DNA from: Promethearchaeota archaeon
Lineage (GTDB): Archaea > Asgardarchaeota > Lokiarchaeia > Sigyniarchaeales > SOKP01
Assembly: GCA_016839745.1 (NCBI GenBank)
Contig: JAEOTS010000113.1
Span: forward strand, 1-22,812
Direction of reading: 5' to 3'
Length of the DNA: 22,812 nucleotides
In this document: piece after piece, positions 1 to 9,450 of the stretch
How positions within the stretch are numbered: position 1 is the stretch's first letter
Layout: every line of letters begins with the position of its first letter
Translations under genes and position numbers: made by a program
Notes under the pieces: model-generated
What the model saw: the letters and a program-made list of their open reading frames with translations, nothing else
Told to the model about the DNA's origin: nothing
Database searches by the model: none

Positions 1-297
1 ATCTCTGATAACATTTTCAGCCGGAAATTCTTTAATTTCTTTAGCGAGCTCTCCTAAAAATAACGGTTTCTTGCCTTTTAGTTTTTCAAGGACTAATTTC
101 CGCTCTGTTTCAGCGTCTATCATTGCATCAAGGATTTGGTAAAAATCGGTTTCAGAAAATTTACCAGCTTTCAATATTTCGTCTTTGGCTTCAAAAAAGG
201 CTCTAACTTGAAAGTTTCCTGAAGCTATATATGTAGCTTCCATTAAATCTGCAGGAGAAAATTCTTTAAATGATTTGTTTTTTACAGTTTGAACCAT
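1..297 (-). CDS. Partial CDS (N-terminal 99 aa, runs off the window start); third gene of the hdrA-mvhD operon, function uncertain, possibly an FrhB/FdhB-type partner
   Basis: Open frame from ATG at 297 to position 1: MVQTVKNKSFKEFSPADLMEATYIASGNFQVRAFFEAKDEILKAGKFSETDFYQILDAMIDAETERKLVLEKLKGKKPLFLGELAKEIKEFPAENVIRD. AGGT upstream. Not in the ORF track. The product guess rests on operon context only. Confidence 0.7.
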   Translation of the reverse strand, partial: MVQTVKNKSFKEFSPADLMEATYIASGNFQVRAFFEAKDEILKAGKFSETDFYQILDAMIDAETERKLVLEKLKGKKPLFLGELAKEIKEFPAENVIRD

Positions 298-356
298 ACT
301 TCATTCTCTTACCTATTTTTTATAAAAATTACATTAATTAACAAAAATTTTATTAC

Positions 357-429
357 ACTCCCTTTCCCTTGCGAGGCAAGTCATCCTACAACTACAATTT
401 TCTTGCAGGAATCATTCTACGGGAGGAGT
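357..429 (-). promoter_or_regulatory. Eukaryote-like SECIS element (selenocysteine insertion sequence)
   Basis: Minus strand 415->380 reads AUGA-U-UCCUGCAA-GAAAAUUGUAG-UUGUAGGA-U-GA-C. This gives an AUGA/GA core, an 8-bp helix with one G.U pair and an A-rich apical loop. A lower helix can form between ACUCCUCCC (429-421) and GGGAAAGGGAGU (368-357). It lies directly 3' of two genes with in-frame UGAs. Confidence 0.85.
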
Positions 430-846
430 TATTACATCCGCATACTTTATCGGATTGGATCCAGACCTCTTTATTTTTTCGTATGCATCCTCTACGCTTT
501 TAACTAGTTTATCTGCTTCTGCTCCGCTTAACCAATACATATTGATTCTTTGATTTCCGTAACCTCTTAAGTCAAGTATCCTATTAGCTAAATCAACATG
601 CCTTTGAGCGGTAAAATTACCTTGTTTGAACTCGCATTCATTTGGGCGTCAACCAACAACCATAACTCCGTCAGCTCCAGCTTTTATCCCATATAGAATA
701 TGCTTTACATCGATTCTTCCGGTACACTTTACTTTTATAATTTTGATTGATGCGGTATATTTCATTCGAGAAACTCCAGCTAAATCCGCCGCAGAATACC
801 CTCATTTCAAACAAGCAAACATTAGAATTTTAAATTCGTTCTCCAT
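412..846 (-). CDS. mvhD: Methyl-viologen-reducing hydrogenase delta subunit MvhD/VhuD, selenoprotein with 2 Sec (U15, U66), 144 aa
   Basis: Manual translation: MENEFKILMFACLKUGYSAADLAGVSRMKYTASIKIIKVKCTGRIDVKHILYGIKAGADGVMVVGURPNECEFKQGNF...GSNPIKYADVITPPVE*. TGA at 804-802 and 651-649 replaces the Cys of the MvhD CxxC and GCxxxxC motifs. SD AGGAGGT overlaps the hdrA 3' end. Confidence 0.93.
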
Positions 847-850
847 TTTT

Positions 851-2791
851 TTAACCTCCTTCCAACATTCCATCAATTTCAGTAAATAACTGATAATCTC
901 TAAAATATCTAATATCTATCGCGTTAGTCGGGCAACAACTAGCGCAGATTCCGCAGCCATCGCAATTAATTTCGTCTATAACCGCCGCTTCTTCACCTGT
1001 AACCGTTATTGCATTTTTAGGGCATACCTTTTCACATCTTCCACAGCTAATGCAAAGATCATTAGTAACTTCTGCAATAATTAGTTCAATGTCTATTTCT
1101 CCAGGAGCTGTTAATTCGGCTACCTTACTTGCGGCAGCTCTAGCTTGAGAAACAGAGTAGGCTATGTCTTTTGGACCTTGGGCGAACCCCGCAATGAAAA
1201 TTCCTTTAGTTTTAGTTTCTTGCGGCATTAATCCAAAGTGAGACTCTGTTAAAAATCCATTTCGATCAGAGTCTAAATTTAATATCCTAGAAATTTGCTC
1301 CGTACCTTTTGAAGGTAATGCAGCTGTTGATAATACTACTAAATCTGCGCTGATTTTTATGATTTCGTCAGTTAACGAAGAGTAAACTCGGATATTAACA
1401 TTCTTTGTGTCTGGATCTTCAGAAAATTCGCCTACTTTTCCTCGAATCATCCTAATGTCAGATTCTTTAGCTCTTTGATAATATTCTTCGAAACCCTTTT
1501 CGTTAGTCCTCATATCTATGTAACAAATAGTAATATTTGCGTTAGGGAATTCTTCTTTCAGCAATTTTCCATTTTTTAAGGCTAACATGCAGCAAACGCC
1601 GCTACAATAAGGTCTCTCAGTGTCCCGACTCCCCACACATTGAATAAACACTATTTCTTCAGGTTCTTTTGTATCCGATATTCTATGGGTATGACCTTCT
1701 AGAGGCCCATTTGGAGCTAGAATTCGTTCGAGCTGGCATTGAGTTATAACATTTTCAAATTCTCCGTATCCATACTCTCCGAACGGCTCGTAAATGTTCC
1801 ACCCCGTCGCTACAATGATTGTGCCTACTTTGAAAGTAACTTCTTCTGGTACCTGACTGAAGTCTATAGCGTCTAACTCGCAAGCTTCAACGCAACTAAA
1901 GCATTCAACGCACACATCACGATTAATATCGTACAAGAAGGGGACGGCTTGTCCAAATGCGATGTCTATAGCTCTTCTTGGTCCTAAGTGTTCGTCAAAG
2001 TAATTGGAAGTGATTATCGGACAAACTTCCGTACACGCTCCACATCCATTACAATCGTTGTTTACATATCTAGGCTTCTTTTCAACTTTCACATCGTAAT
2101 TTCCTACGAATCCATCCACTTTTTTCACGTCGCTATAACTTAGAATTTCTATATTTTCGTTCCGATTAACTTCGAGCATAACGGGACCGCAGATTCATAT
2201 CGAACAATCGTCGGTAGGAAATGTTCTATCTAATTGGGCCATTCTACCTCCTATAGTAGTTTTACTCTCGACTAAATACACTTTGATCCCTTCGTTTGCG
2301 AGGTCCAATGCAGCGTTCATTCCAGCAATCCCCCCACCTACTATCATTGTGGCTTTTTCAACGGGGACCGTTCTGACTGGAACAGCTTCTAAAGTTTTTG
2401 CTCTATTTACTCCGCTAGTAACGAGGATTTTAGCTTTATTTAGTGCATCTTCACTATCTTCTGTACACCAAGAACAATGCTCTCTTACATTTACCATTTG
2501 AAAATGGTAAGGATTTAAGCCCGTTTTAGAAATAGAGGCCCTATAAATTGGTTCGTGAGTCCTAGGTGTTCAAGCAGACGCCACTATACAATCAAGGTTT
2601 TTTTCGTTAATATCGTTAATTATTTCTTGTTGTCCACCCTCTGTTCACAGAAAAGCATGAGTTTTAGATATCACAACATCGTCTAAGCCTTTTGCATAAT
2701 CTACTAGTTTATCGCAATCTACTTTTCTCTTAATGTTAATTCCTCACTGGCAAGCATAGTATCCAATCCGATGATTTTCAGATTTTTCCAT
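851..2791 (-). CDS. hdrA: Heterodisulfide reductase subunit A, selenoprotein with 4 Sec (U16, U49, U74, U199), 646 aa
   Basis: ATG at 2791 (SD GAGGTG upstream) is in frame with track ORFs 2195-2497 and 851-2179. In-frame TGAs at 2746-2744 (ACQUGINI), 2647-2645 (FLUTEGGQ), 2572-2570 (SAUTPRTHEP) and 2197-2195 (TFPTDDCSIUICGP) match HdrA motifs CHCGxNI, MCSxxGQ, ACSPRxHE and TFPTxDCSxCI. Also present: GGGIAG FAD motif, CVGSR...YCSGVCC, and four CxxCxxCxxxC ferredoxin motifs. Confidence 0.95.
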
Positions 2792-3106
2792 TTTCTTTCT
2801 TACTCCACCTCAATTTTTACAATTATGTCTATTCTTTCTGTACTAAATTCAATTTCGTCCTTTATCATTTTCCGACACTCTAAACGAAATTATATCAAAA
2901 AACTTACTTTTTTTTAATGATTTTTTATTTAAATTCTTATTTATTTAAGTTTTTATGTTATATATTATATTTTCTTCTATTTAACGATATAAGTAAAAGC
3001 TAAAAATCAAATTAGTGCTATAATTTGAAATAATTTACTCTTCGATCTATAAAAAAATACCGCTCCTACATAAGAAAGGCACTAAATTCTAATCTAAGAT
3101 GCTTTT

Positions 3107-4249
3107 CTAAACTTGTTGAATTTGCTTCATAGATTGTATTTCAAACTTTCGCTCGACTAAATCTTTTGTCAAATCTTCTAACTTTTCAATTTTTCTTTCT
3201 AATAGGTCTATTTTATTAAAATTCGCTGCTAGGATTTTTCTTATCAGTTTATTTTCTGATACTGTAAACGCTCCAGCCTTTTTTCTAAAAAACTTATATC
3301 TCCGATAGTGATCCGATCTTTTTAAAAGATTCAATCGTATCATCCATTTAATAGCGGGCATAAAATATTTTTTAGGACCAATTTTCCTTTTTACCTCGCC
3401 ATAATAATCTTCAAGCGTATGTTGTTGGTAATTTAGGAGGTTTTGAGATTTGGTGGTATTCATATAGCCACAGTGGAAGTCCTTTTCAGCGAATCCTTCT
3501 TCAGGAAGAAAATTTCTACCTAACCCAAAAATATCCATCATATCGTTAAGATAGTCTCGATAGGTTATTCTACATTGTTTACCACCGGCTAAATTGAATA
3601 TTTCGCCCCATACTTCATCACATCCGATCGAATTGACTAAAGCTAGCCCAACATCTTTAGTATCACAGATTTCGATAGAAGTATCTAATGGCATGTGAAA
3701 CATTAGAGGATCCATATTAAGTTTATCGATAGATGTTATATAGGTTAATCTAAATATTGCGAAATCTACACCTGATTCTCTAATCAACTTTTCAGCAGAG
3801 ATTTTAGTTATAGCATAATAATCTCCTTTACTGGGAGCAACTGGATCACTAACTTCTATCATTGGATTGTATCGTCGATCTCCGTAAACAGCCACAGATG
3901 ATGTAAAGATTAATTTAGATTTCTGCACCTGTTTTTTAATAGCTTCAAGTATGTTTTTGGTTCCTCCAACATTTACAGATTCAGCCAAGCTAGGATTCGT
4001 ATCTGCCAATGGTGGAATAATCGCAGCCAGATGGATTACTATGTCTTGATTCTGGACAGCAGTAGTCACATCTTCCTTATTTCTAAGGTCACCCCAAATA
4101 ATCTCTATTTTATTTTTGAATTGTTTAGCAATTTTTCTGTTTTTTCTATTGTATACTTCAAAAACTCTGACTTCATAATTTTTATTTAGTAATTCATTTA
4201 AGGTGCTTAATCCTACATTCCCAAAAGCACCTGTTAATAATATTTTCAT
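3107..4249 (-). CDS. NAD-dependent epimerase/dehydratase (extended SDR) with C-terminal coiled-coil-like tail
   Basis: TGAFGNVG Rossmann motif, HLAA, VNVGGT, SSVAVYG and catalytic YAITK (YxxxK). Confidence 0.9.
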   Translation of the reverse strand: MKILLTGAFGNVGLSTLNELLNKNYEVRVFEVYNRKNRKIAKQFKNKIEIIWGDLRNKEDVTTAVQNQDIVIHLAAIIPPLADTNPSLAESVNVGGTKNILEAIKKQVQKSKLIFTSSVAVYGDRRYNPMIEVSDPVAPSKGDYYAITKISAEKLIRESGVDFAIFRLTYITSIDKLNMDPLMFHMPLDTSIEICDTKDVGLALVNSIGCDEVWGEIFNLAGGKQCRITYRDYLNDMMDIFGLGRNFLPEEGFAEKDFHCGYMNTTKSQNLLNYQQHTLEDYYGEVKRKIGPKKYFMPAIKWMIRLNLLKRSDHYRRYKFFRKKAGAFTVSENKLIRKILAANFNKIDLLERKIEKLEDLTKDLVERKFEIQSMKQIQQV

Positions 4250-8529: not shown

Positions 8530-9450
8530 GTGAAGTTTACTATTAAAATATCTCTTGTAGGACTTGGAGGATGTGGTAAAACAAGTTTGTATTCTGTCGC
8601 TTTTGCAGAAAAAAGACCAGAAGACACCAAAAAGTTAAGTCCCACAATCCTCTATGAGACGAGAAGACACCCCTTTTTAGGGCTTCAGGTTGGAATTTTT
8701 GACTTCGGCGGACAAGAACAATACAGAAAAGAATATATGGAAAAGCCAGAAATTTTTAAAGGCACTGATATTTTAATTTGCATTGTTGATTTACACGATC
8801 CAGACTCTTTCGATCAAGGAAAAGAATACTTTGAGGGTTTATTGGATATTCATAGGAAAAATAACGAGAAACCAAGAGTCTTATTATTCTTACACAAATA
8901 CGATACTGAAGACTATCCAAAGGAACTTTTAGATACGAATGTTAAGAATGCCAAAGAAATCTTTTCAGACATGTTTAAAGATTACGATTTCGATTTAAAA
9001 TTGACGAGTATTTATCAACAAGATGAATTAGCTAAAGTTTTTCGGGATATGTTAATTTCTTCTTACAAAGACTTAAAGGCTTCTGTTGAGAAAGCAGAGA
9101 GTCAACTCGAAGAAATAAAAGCTAAGATAATAATTTCTGATGTTTCTGGAAATGTGCTAGTTCATAACGTTCAAGGTGTTAGCAGTGGTTTGACGCTAAG
9201 AGGAGATTTGAGGGATTTCATTGACGCAGCAAATACGGTGAGAGAGAATATTTTTATGTCCGATTCGTGTCGCTTCATGGGACAGAGTGAAGATGGAAAG
9301 GGGATTGAGCTCCACATCTTTAAGTATATCATTTCTGTATTTGTTATGAAATCACAAGAATTAGATAGAGATTCTCAAGATAAATTGAACGTGTTACTTA
9401 ACGATATGAAACTTTTCGCAGATTTAATCATCTCTGCTCACTCCGATTAA
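8530..9450 (+). CDS. Rag/Gtr-like small GTPase with C-terminal roadblock-like domain
   Basis: G1 GLGGCGKTS, G2 SPT, G3 DFGGQ, G4 FLHKYD (HKxD, typical of Rag) and G5 LTSIY (as in RagC/D). C-terminal IIISDVSGNVLVHN... shows an alpha/beta roadblock-like pattern. GTG start. Confidence 0.82.
   Translation: MKFTIKISLVGLGGCGKTSLYSVAFAEKRPEDTKKLSPTILYETRRHPFLGLQVGIFDFGGQEQYRKEYMEKPEIFKGTDILICIVDLHDPDSFDQGKEYFEGLLDIHRKNNEKPRVLLFLHKYDTEDYPKELLDTNVKNAKEIFSDMFKDYDFDLKLTSIYQQDELAKVFRDMLISSYKDLKASVEKAESQLEEIKAKIIISDVSGNVLVHNVQGVSSGLTLRGDLRDFIDAANTVRENIFMSDSCRFMGQSEDGKGIELHIFKYIISVFVMKSQELDRDSQDKLNVLLNDMKLFADLIISAHSD

Follow-up and report, generated by a model that had tools for sequence, protein, structure and literature searches.

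The closest described relatives of the gene analysed here are the heterodisulfide reductase subunit A (HdrA) proteins of Lokiarchaeota, for which Mariotti 2016 (PMC4989117) reports up to four selenocysteine (Sec) residues at five positions, one near residue 200 being always included. That paper also describes tandems of hdrA and vhuD with very short spacers, hdrA stop codons that are UAA or UAG, and a single selenocysteine insertion sequence (SECIS) of the lokiSECIS type, found solely behind vhuD and serving up to six UGA codons over about 2 kb. In 2024 the survey was widened to 227 Sec-using Asgard genomes and 1439 Asgard selenoprotein sequences (PMC11227280). We describe an hdrA gene with four in-frame UGA codons in a stretch of 22,812 nucleotides (nt), hereafter the window, which comprises positions 1 to 22,812 of contig JAEOTS010000113.1 from a Promethearchaeota archaeon of the Lokiarchaeia (assembly GCA_016839745.1). 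An earlier interpretation of this DNA from its letters alone, which we call the sequence-only reading, had put a single Sec in methanococcal HdrA and had warned that multi-Sec HdrA from Asgard archaea might already be partly described; the 2016 paper agrees on the single Sec and bears the warning out (PMC4989117).

The hdrA frame and its four UGA codons

The gene and its in-frame UGA codons are located as follows.

851..2791, minus strand: hdrA coding sequence of 646 codons, with ATG at 2791-2789 and TAA at 853-851, translated with TGA as Sec (U)
2744..2746, minus strand: UGA codon 16 (Sec16), the second residue of the C14-x-U16 pair, equivalent to Cys13 of 5odc_A
2645..2647, minus strand: UGA codon 49 (Sec49), equivalent to Cys46 of 5odc_A, a position that toggles between Sec and cysteine (Cys) among orthologues
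2570..2572, minus strand: UGA codon 74 (Sec74), equivalent to Cys71 of 5odc_A
2195..2197, minus strand: UGA codon 199 (Sec199), the canonical Sec site of HdrA, within the C196-x-x-U199 pair beside the flavin adenine dinucleotide (FAD) domain

The sequence-only reading named no strand; hdrA is on the minus strand, and a plus-strand reading of 851-2791 was rejected, as it meets stops throughout. Translated on the minus strand with TGA as Sec, the gene forms the one continuous frame with four UGAs that had been claimed for it, the in-frame TGA codons being exactly 16, 49, 74 and 199. Under translation table 11 it splits into open reading frames (ORFs) of 442 and 100 amino acids (aa), so that ordinary annotation would miss the gene.

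The protein matches five solved HdrA chains from end to end (9sfi_A with E=4e-197 over residues 7-644; 8rvu, 5odc, 8rvv and 7bkb, all with E <1e-168). Its layout is the five-domain one, with an N-terminal iron-sulfur (Fe-S) domain, an FAD-binding thioredoxin-reductase-like domain (Pyr_redox_2, NAD_binding_8 and FAD_oxidored matches at residues 148-193), an inserted ferredoxin domain (Fer4_10 at 241-304) and another ferredoxin domain at the C-terminus (Fer4, Fer4_7 and Fer4_21 at 573-626). It also has the sequence characters of type I HdrA ('HdrA1'), namely full-length similarity, four N-terminal Cys, the CxxC pair and both ferredoxin domains with 2x[4Fe-4S] motifs in either. Judged by these matches, the gene is a genuine HdrA of the five-domain type, as the sequence-only reading had proposed.

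The first 210 residues of HdrA were aligned with the five solved sequences, Sec being treated as an analogue of Cys. C14, U16, U49, U74, C196 and U199 stand on invariant Cys columns, corresponding to Cys11, 13, 46, 71, 194 and 197 of 5odc_A. Positions 16, 49 and 74 are Cys in all five solved sequences, and position 199 is either Cys or X, its equivalents being Cys197 in 5odc_A, Cys205 in the HdrA of M. marburgensis, and X (Sec) in 9sfi_A. Just four Cys of the N-terminal domain are conserved across the five sequences; three of these are Sec here, and Cys14 stays Cys. Two further claims made from the letters alone, that each UGA falls at a conserved HdrA Cys and that three of them (codons 16, 49 and 74) cluster in the N-terminal Fe-S domain, both hold in this alignment.

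The same codons recur in related genomes. When 300 more genomes from this phylum were surveyed, orthologues with three to five in-frame TGA codons were found throughout the genus and family, and 30 hdrA loci were fetched. TGA occupies all four positions in 19 of these, one of which has a fifth Sec at position 300, and the remaining 11 combine three TGA codons with Cys at 49. A second set of 80 named loci, 81 with the window, comes from "Promethearchaeota/Promethearchaeia archaeon" metagenome-assembled genomes (MAGs), a few under other Asgard names, with 74-95% identity. TGA is kept at codon 16 in 80/81 loci and at codons 74 and 199 in 81/81; codon 49 is TGA in 57 and Cys in 24; C14 and C196 are never Sec. 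Toggling between Cys and Sec at one column is a classic mark of a true Sec site. On this comparison of sequences the TGA pattern is far beyond chance and reflects neither sequencing error nor decay. A survey of Cys and Sec states in Asgard orthologues had been called for along with the sequence-only reading, and its outcome is that the TGA positions are kept and that codon 49 toggles. The gene itself stops with TAA in the window and, among the 80 orthologues, with TAA in 64, TAG in 16 and TGA in none.

Rare extra Sec residues occur at ligand Cys of the ferredoxin motif CxxCxxCxxxCP: at position 300 in 3/81 loci, at 297 in 1/81 and at 613 in 1/81 (locus L020 and the orthologous loci L045-L124). 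These indicate that Sec at Fe-S ligand sites is tolerated in the HdrA family, and they may exceed the 'five possible positions' given in 2016.

At least nine HdrA paralogues of full length are encoded in the genome of the window, besides several copies in tandem or fused form (HdrA-bearing contigs C83, C20, C185, C79, C137, C141, C52, C21, C25, C101, C17 and C80). They form a series: four copies are all-Cys, one has U16 and U199, two have U16, U74 and U199, and the window gene has four Sec. One paralogue carries U16, U199 and a Sec within the inserted-ferredoxin motif, which there reads CxxCxxUxxxCP, and the paralogue on C20 (G000:C20:41044-42966) also has Sec at position 300. The numbers of Sec per gene are 0, 2, 3, 3, 3 and 4, always at Cys columns, and in no copy examined does Sec replace Cys14 or Cys196.

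vhuD, the SECIS hairpin and the Sec machinery

Directly downstream of hdrA lie a second gene with in-frame UGA codons and a hairpin of the lokiSECIS type.

412..846, minus strand: vhuD/mvhD (FlpD family; PF02662, 3.3e-41), 144 codons, starting 4 nt past the hdrA stop
804-802, minus strand: vhuD Sec15, equivalent to Cys16 of M. marburgensis MvhD
651-649, minus strand: vhuD Sec66, an in-frame UGA
381..415, minus strand: lokiSECIS-type hairpin consisting of AUGA, a 9-nt arm, an 11-nt A-rich loop, a 9-nt arm and GA; the model match covers 373-423

Both vhuD positions are X in the solved VhuD chain 9sfi_K, and the pattern of two Sec is kept in 78/80 orthologous loci. The UGA that terminates vhuD (414-412) is also the UGA of the SECIS AUGA, so that one triplet would act both as the stop codon of vhuD and as part of the recoding signal. 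Of 76 orthologous loci, 53 have a vhuD that stops with TGA, and for 51 of the 53 this codon is the UGA of the SECIS core.

The SECIS element is found at the same place in 30/30 loci. In the alignment of these loci 92.7% of cells pair, compared with 40-56% in slid controls, and compensatory double changes are seen in five of the nine pairs. Thermodynamic folding of the region is by itself not significant (z = -0.86), and the element is therefore supported by covariation and not by folding energy. An Rfam scan of 1-3200 with E up to 10 gave no match to a SECIS family, only two noise matches. As this type of SECIS has no matching Rfam family, we built a covariance model of our own from the alignment of the 30 loci. 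In the window this model has one strong match, the hairpin behind vhuD (69.9 bits, E 2.5e-15), and no other match above 16 bits with filters off, the interior of hdrA included. Across the genome it also matches behind other hdrA-vhuD pairs.

The sequence-only reading had named a lack of Sec machinery and sequencing errors at the UGA codons among the dangers to its claim. As to the second, identical codons are present in independent assemblies from many studies. As to the first, the genome encodes tRNA-Sec, a PSTK-like protein, SepSecS (411 bits, above the cut-off), an EFSec-like protein and two adjacent SelD proteins, each selD gene having one in-frame TGA of its own (G000:C158:16249-18543). 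This selD pair agrees with the two or more Sec-containing SelD genes reported from many Loki and Thor genomes (PMC11227280).

The tRNA-Sec(UCA) gene is directly upstream of SepSecS (G000:C150:5449-5595; about 1272-1418 of locus L002) and was located by BLAST with tRNA-Sec genes from congeneric genomes, of which 4/12 searched have a clear tRNA-Sec. It contains two insertions, one of 28 nt at the canonical 37/38 site, the other of 30 nt in the T-loop, which are probably two introns. With both removed, ARAGORN calls a tRNA-SeC(tca) with a 9-bp acceptor stem. The insertions make the gene invisible to the standard detectors: Rfam RF01852 found no tRNA-Sec in this genome, its sole match being a tRNA-Gly, and ARAGORN, run with and without introns, found none among just 11-16 tRNAs genome-wide. 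Counting this genome, 4/13 of the same genus have a tRNA-Sec above the Rfam cut-off, and interrupted tRNA-Sec genes may accordingly be common in the genus. Elsewhere in the genome TGA is an ordinary stop, ending 194/1712 ORFs of at least 250 aa (11%), and a genome-wide reassignment of TGA was rejected on this count.

With hairpin, machinery and conserved codons side by side, UGA is very probably decoded as Sec at all four hdrA codons. Most likely hdrA and vhuD are translated from one mRNA. The eukaryote-like SECIS just behind vhuD would recruit the Sec elongation factor, and all six upstream UGAs would be recoded, as proposed in Mariotti 2016; the farthest of them is about 2.3 kb from the SECIS.

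Proposed placing of selenium at the flavin and the shuttle cluster

In the structural literature HdrA's N-terminal domain holds a [4Fe-4S] cluster, HA3 or A3 (PMC13518236, PMC12054007), which supports the placing of the N-terminal Cys at such a cluster in the sequence-only reading. The cluster is described as bound by N-terminal Cys together with Cys197 of the partner subunit (PMC9012536); it has been called the "shuttle cluster", in a paper that also discusses Cys202/Cys205 and Cys16 of MvhD (PMC13580544). The pair of the Cys194/197 type stands, according to state, between flavin and HA3 or between flavin and the [2Fe-2S] cluster of MvhD.

Set against these structures, Sec16, Sec49 and Sec74 would stand in for three out of four conserved Cys in the HA3 domain, and Sec199 would take the place of the residue of Cys197 type in the CxxC pair next to the FAD, a pair that in one conformational state would touch or ligate HA3 in the partner subunit. 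By alignment, three of the four N-terminal ligand candidates are Sec, and we infer that two to four, at the least two, of the residues that hold or touch HA3 are selenolates. Sec16, Sec49 and Sec74 would bind Fe in this form, which could make electron transfer or ligand exchange faster, or tune the potential. The idea of the sequence-only reading that one cluster could be mostly selenolate-ligated, with a shifted redox potential, is in this way partly supported. On this mapping selenium would be concentrated where flavin and shuttle cluster make their gated contact, both VhuD Sec would lie at the other docking partner, and all four HdrA Sec and both VhuD Sec would map to gated contacts around the bifurcating flavin.

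Taken together, we hold with fairly high confidence that this is a functional Asgard hdrA with four Sec, that one SECIS serves hdrA and vhuD, and that selenium is placed at the flavin/shuttle-cluster contact. More tentative, and a proposal that we are slightly more inclined to doubt than to assert, is that HA3 may be held mainly by selenolates (Sec16, Sec49 and Sec74, with the partner's Sec199 in one state), that the six Sec of the unit may line two surfaces docking alternately at the CxxU pair, and that selenium may have been recruited specifically to the gated step at which flavin-based bifurcation hands over its electrons. No paper in the searched literature states that HA3 is held by selenolates. 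The proposal is plausible as a modest update, from alignment, of the 2016 interpretation; if true, it would provide a natural, predominantly selenium-ligated iron-sulfur cluster and would correct the 2016 statement that the Sec sites are not cluster ligands.

Several points weigh against what we propose. That statement of Mariotti 2016 excepts one C-terminal site (PMC4989117); it used a four-cluster HdrA model and predates the structure, and later structures make it doubtful. In cryo-electron microscopy of M. maripaludis HdrA, Sec197 is in a probable selenylsulfide with the neighbouring Cys (PMC13518236), the Cys194/Cys197-type pair has been modelled with an unknown ligand (PMC13580544), and the BCRII preprint has a disulfide at the equivalent pair, about 3.5 Å from the cluster equivalent to HA3; a stable ligation of HA3 by the pair is not what this work describes. 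Our assignment of ligands draws on conservation, alignment and secondary structural descriptions, Sec decoding is read at the level of sequence, and both the common mRNA and the reach of one SECIS are deduced from the anatomy of the locus. Two of the machinery genes score below their curated NCBIfam cut-offs, the EFSec/SelB-like gene on the SepSecS contig with 228.6 bits (cut-off 242) and the full-length PSTK-like gene with 173 bits (cut-off 290), each being the best full-length match.

The structural points of this list also speak for a different role of the same residues, in which the Sec are real and are not Fe ligands: they would be redox-active selenols, in a selenol/thiol relay or a selenylsulfide, and this paralogue would hold HA3 in another way or lack it. 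Mariotti 2016 is explicit on this, writing of 'multiple catalytic Cys residues' (PMC4989117). Beside the probable selenylsulfide of Sec197 and the disulfide of the BCRII preprint, which also has a non-ligand Sec in an MvhD-like subunit, VhuD Sec15 corresponds to the non-ligand 'additional' Cys16 of MvhD. Nevertheless, the solved N-terminal domain binds a [4Fe-4S] cluster (PMC12054007, PMC13518236), and three of its four conserved Cys are the ones replaced by Sec here; a few orthologues and the C20 paralogue, moreover, have Sec at ferredoxin ligand positions (297, 300, 613). We consider a purely redox role of the selenols unlikely.

A second alternative, that the UGAs are not read as Sec, would make the gene a pseudogene, or have it give truncated products, or have Cys or Trp inserted by near-cognate tRNAs. 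It can draw on the fact that Sec is known here from DNA, on a tRNA-Sec that escaped the standard detectors and on the two machinery genes below cut-off. Yet the TGA positions are kept in 81 genomes with the frame intact and, to either side, 74-95% protein identity, no TGA falls outside Cys columns, the SECIS is present and covaries, the tRNA-Sec becomes recognisable without its two insertions, in-frame TGA is found in the selD genes too, and hdrA never stops with TGA; this alternative is very improbable. That the TGA codons are sequencing or assembly errors, or that TGA is reassigned genome-wide, has in its favour only the fragmented state of the source MAG (192 contigs, 89% complete, 5.8% contamination), and is already refuted by the conservation over 81 loci in independent assemblies and by the 11% of long ORFs that end in TGA.

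Surroundings and comparison with known systems

Beyond vhuD the window reaches the end of the contig within the next gene.

1..297, minus strand: 5' portion of the following gene, truncated where the contig ends, encoding the N-terminus of a 501-aa FrhB/FdhB-like Fe-S flavoprotein; 72% identity to L130:11157-12662

The longer orthologous contig L130 has the order epimerase, hdrA, vhuD, two frhB-like genes, an HdrCB-like CCG protein, a fused HdrA-like protein of 1028 aa and a second mvhD. The conserved cluster headed by hdrA and vhuD is represented by 1-297 (minus strand) in the window and by L130:11157-18600, the fused 1028-aa protein being a double HdrA-like one. An in-frame TGA of the HdrCB-like gene (L130:13826-15079) was considered as a Sec codon and rejected, as it is the stop codon near the gene end. 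Genes for hdrBC are absent from the window, where the contig ends; the HdrCB-like CCG protein is four genes downstream in the orthologous locus. No hydrogenase large or small subunit adjoins the hdrA-vhuD cluster, which together with the FrhB-like genes in it suggests electron input of the FrhB type and not of the H2 type.

Elsewhere in the window, a small GTPase of the Gtr1/RagA family is encoded at 8530-9450 on the plus strand (PF04670, 4.2e-22), an Asgard 'eukaryotic signature' protein whose neighbours are a HEAT-repeat protein, an FrhB-like protein and a DRG/TGS-type GTPase. A GTPase of the Rag/Gtr1 type fits an Asgard host. The Asgard host is not known as a methanogen.

As an observation the gene adds little to what was published in 2016 and surveyed across Asgard archaea in 2024. 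It offers a clean, conserved test case for how one 3' SECIS recodes six UGAs over 2.3 kb and two cistrons, and for what selenium does where flavin and shuttle cluster meet in electron bifurcation of the HdrA type; three structural studies from 2026 still describe this step as unresolved (PMC13518236, PMC13580544, bioRxiv 2026.04.10.717634). The genus itself supplies a natural series, from zero to five Sec with position 49 toggling and Cys14 and Cys196 never replaced, that is suited to comparative biochemistry. The gene also serves as a warning that conventional gene callers break up or overlook multi-Sec genes such as hdrA.

Among the methanogen systems, the M. maripaludis Hdr-Vhu-Fwd complex 9sfi (PMC13518236), with a Methanococcales HdrA that has a single Sec197, shares with our locus the five-domain architecture, Sec at the same CxxU position, and a partner VhuD with two Sec at the same two positions. 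It differs in that the methanogen HdrA has Cys at the three N-terminal positions, in its SECIS of the archaeal type, and in being a CoM-S-S-CoB-reducing complex of methanogenesis. The surroundings differ as well, the neighbours of the Asgard hdrA-vhuD pair being FrhB-like, with the HdrCB-like CCG protein and the fused 1028-aa HdrA-like protein in the orthologous locus. In the HdrA of Methanothermococcus thermolithotrophicus (5ODC/5ODH), Cys11, 13, 46, 71, 194 and 197 align to C14, U16, U49, U74, C196 and U199, but that protein is all-cysteine.

The closest resemblance is to the Loki proteins HdrA.1-HdrA.4 (PMC4989117), from which nothing essential differs, with 16, 49, 74 and 199 as candidates for the exact positions of 2016. 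Common to both are multiple Sec at conserved Cys including the one at about 200, the 4-nt spacer, a vhuD with two Sec, the single lokiSECIS and the TAA stop of hdrA. The class of multi-Sec HdrA, the hdrA-vhuD tandem and the shared SECIS have been known since 2016, and as every feature described then is found here, the gene is a further example of the published kind.

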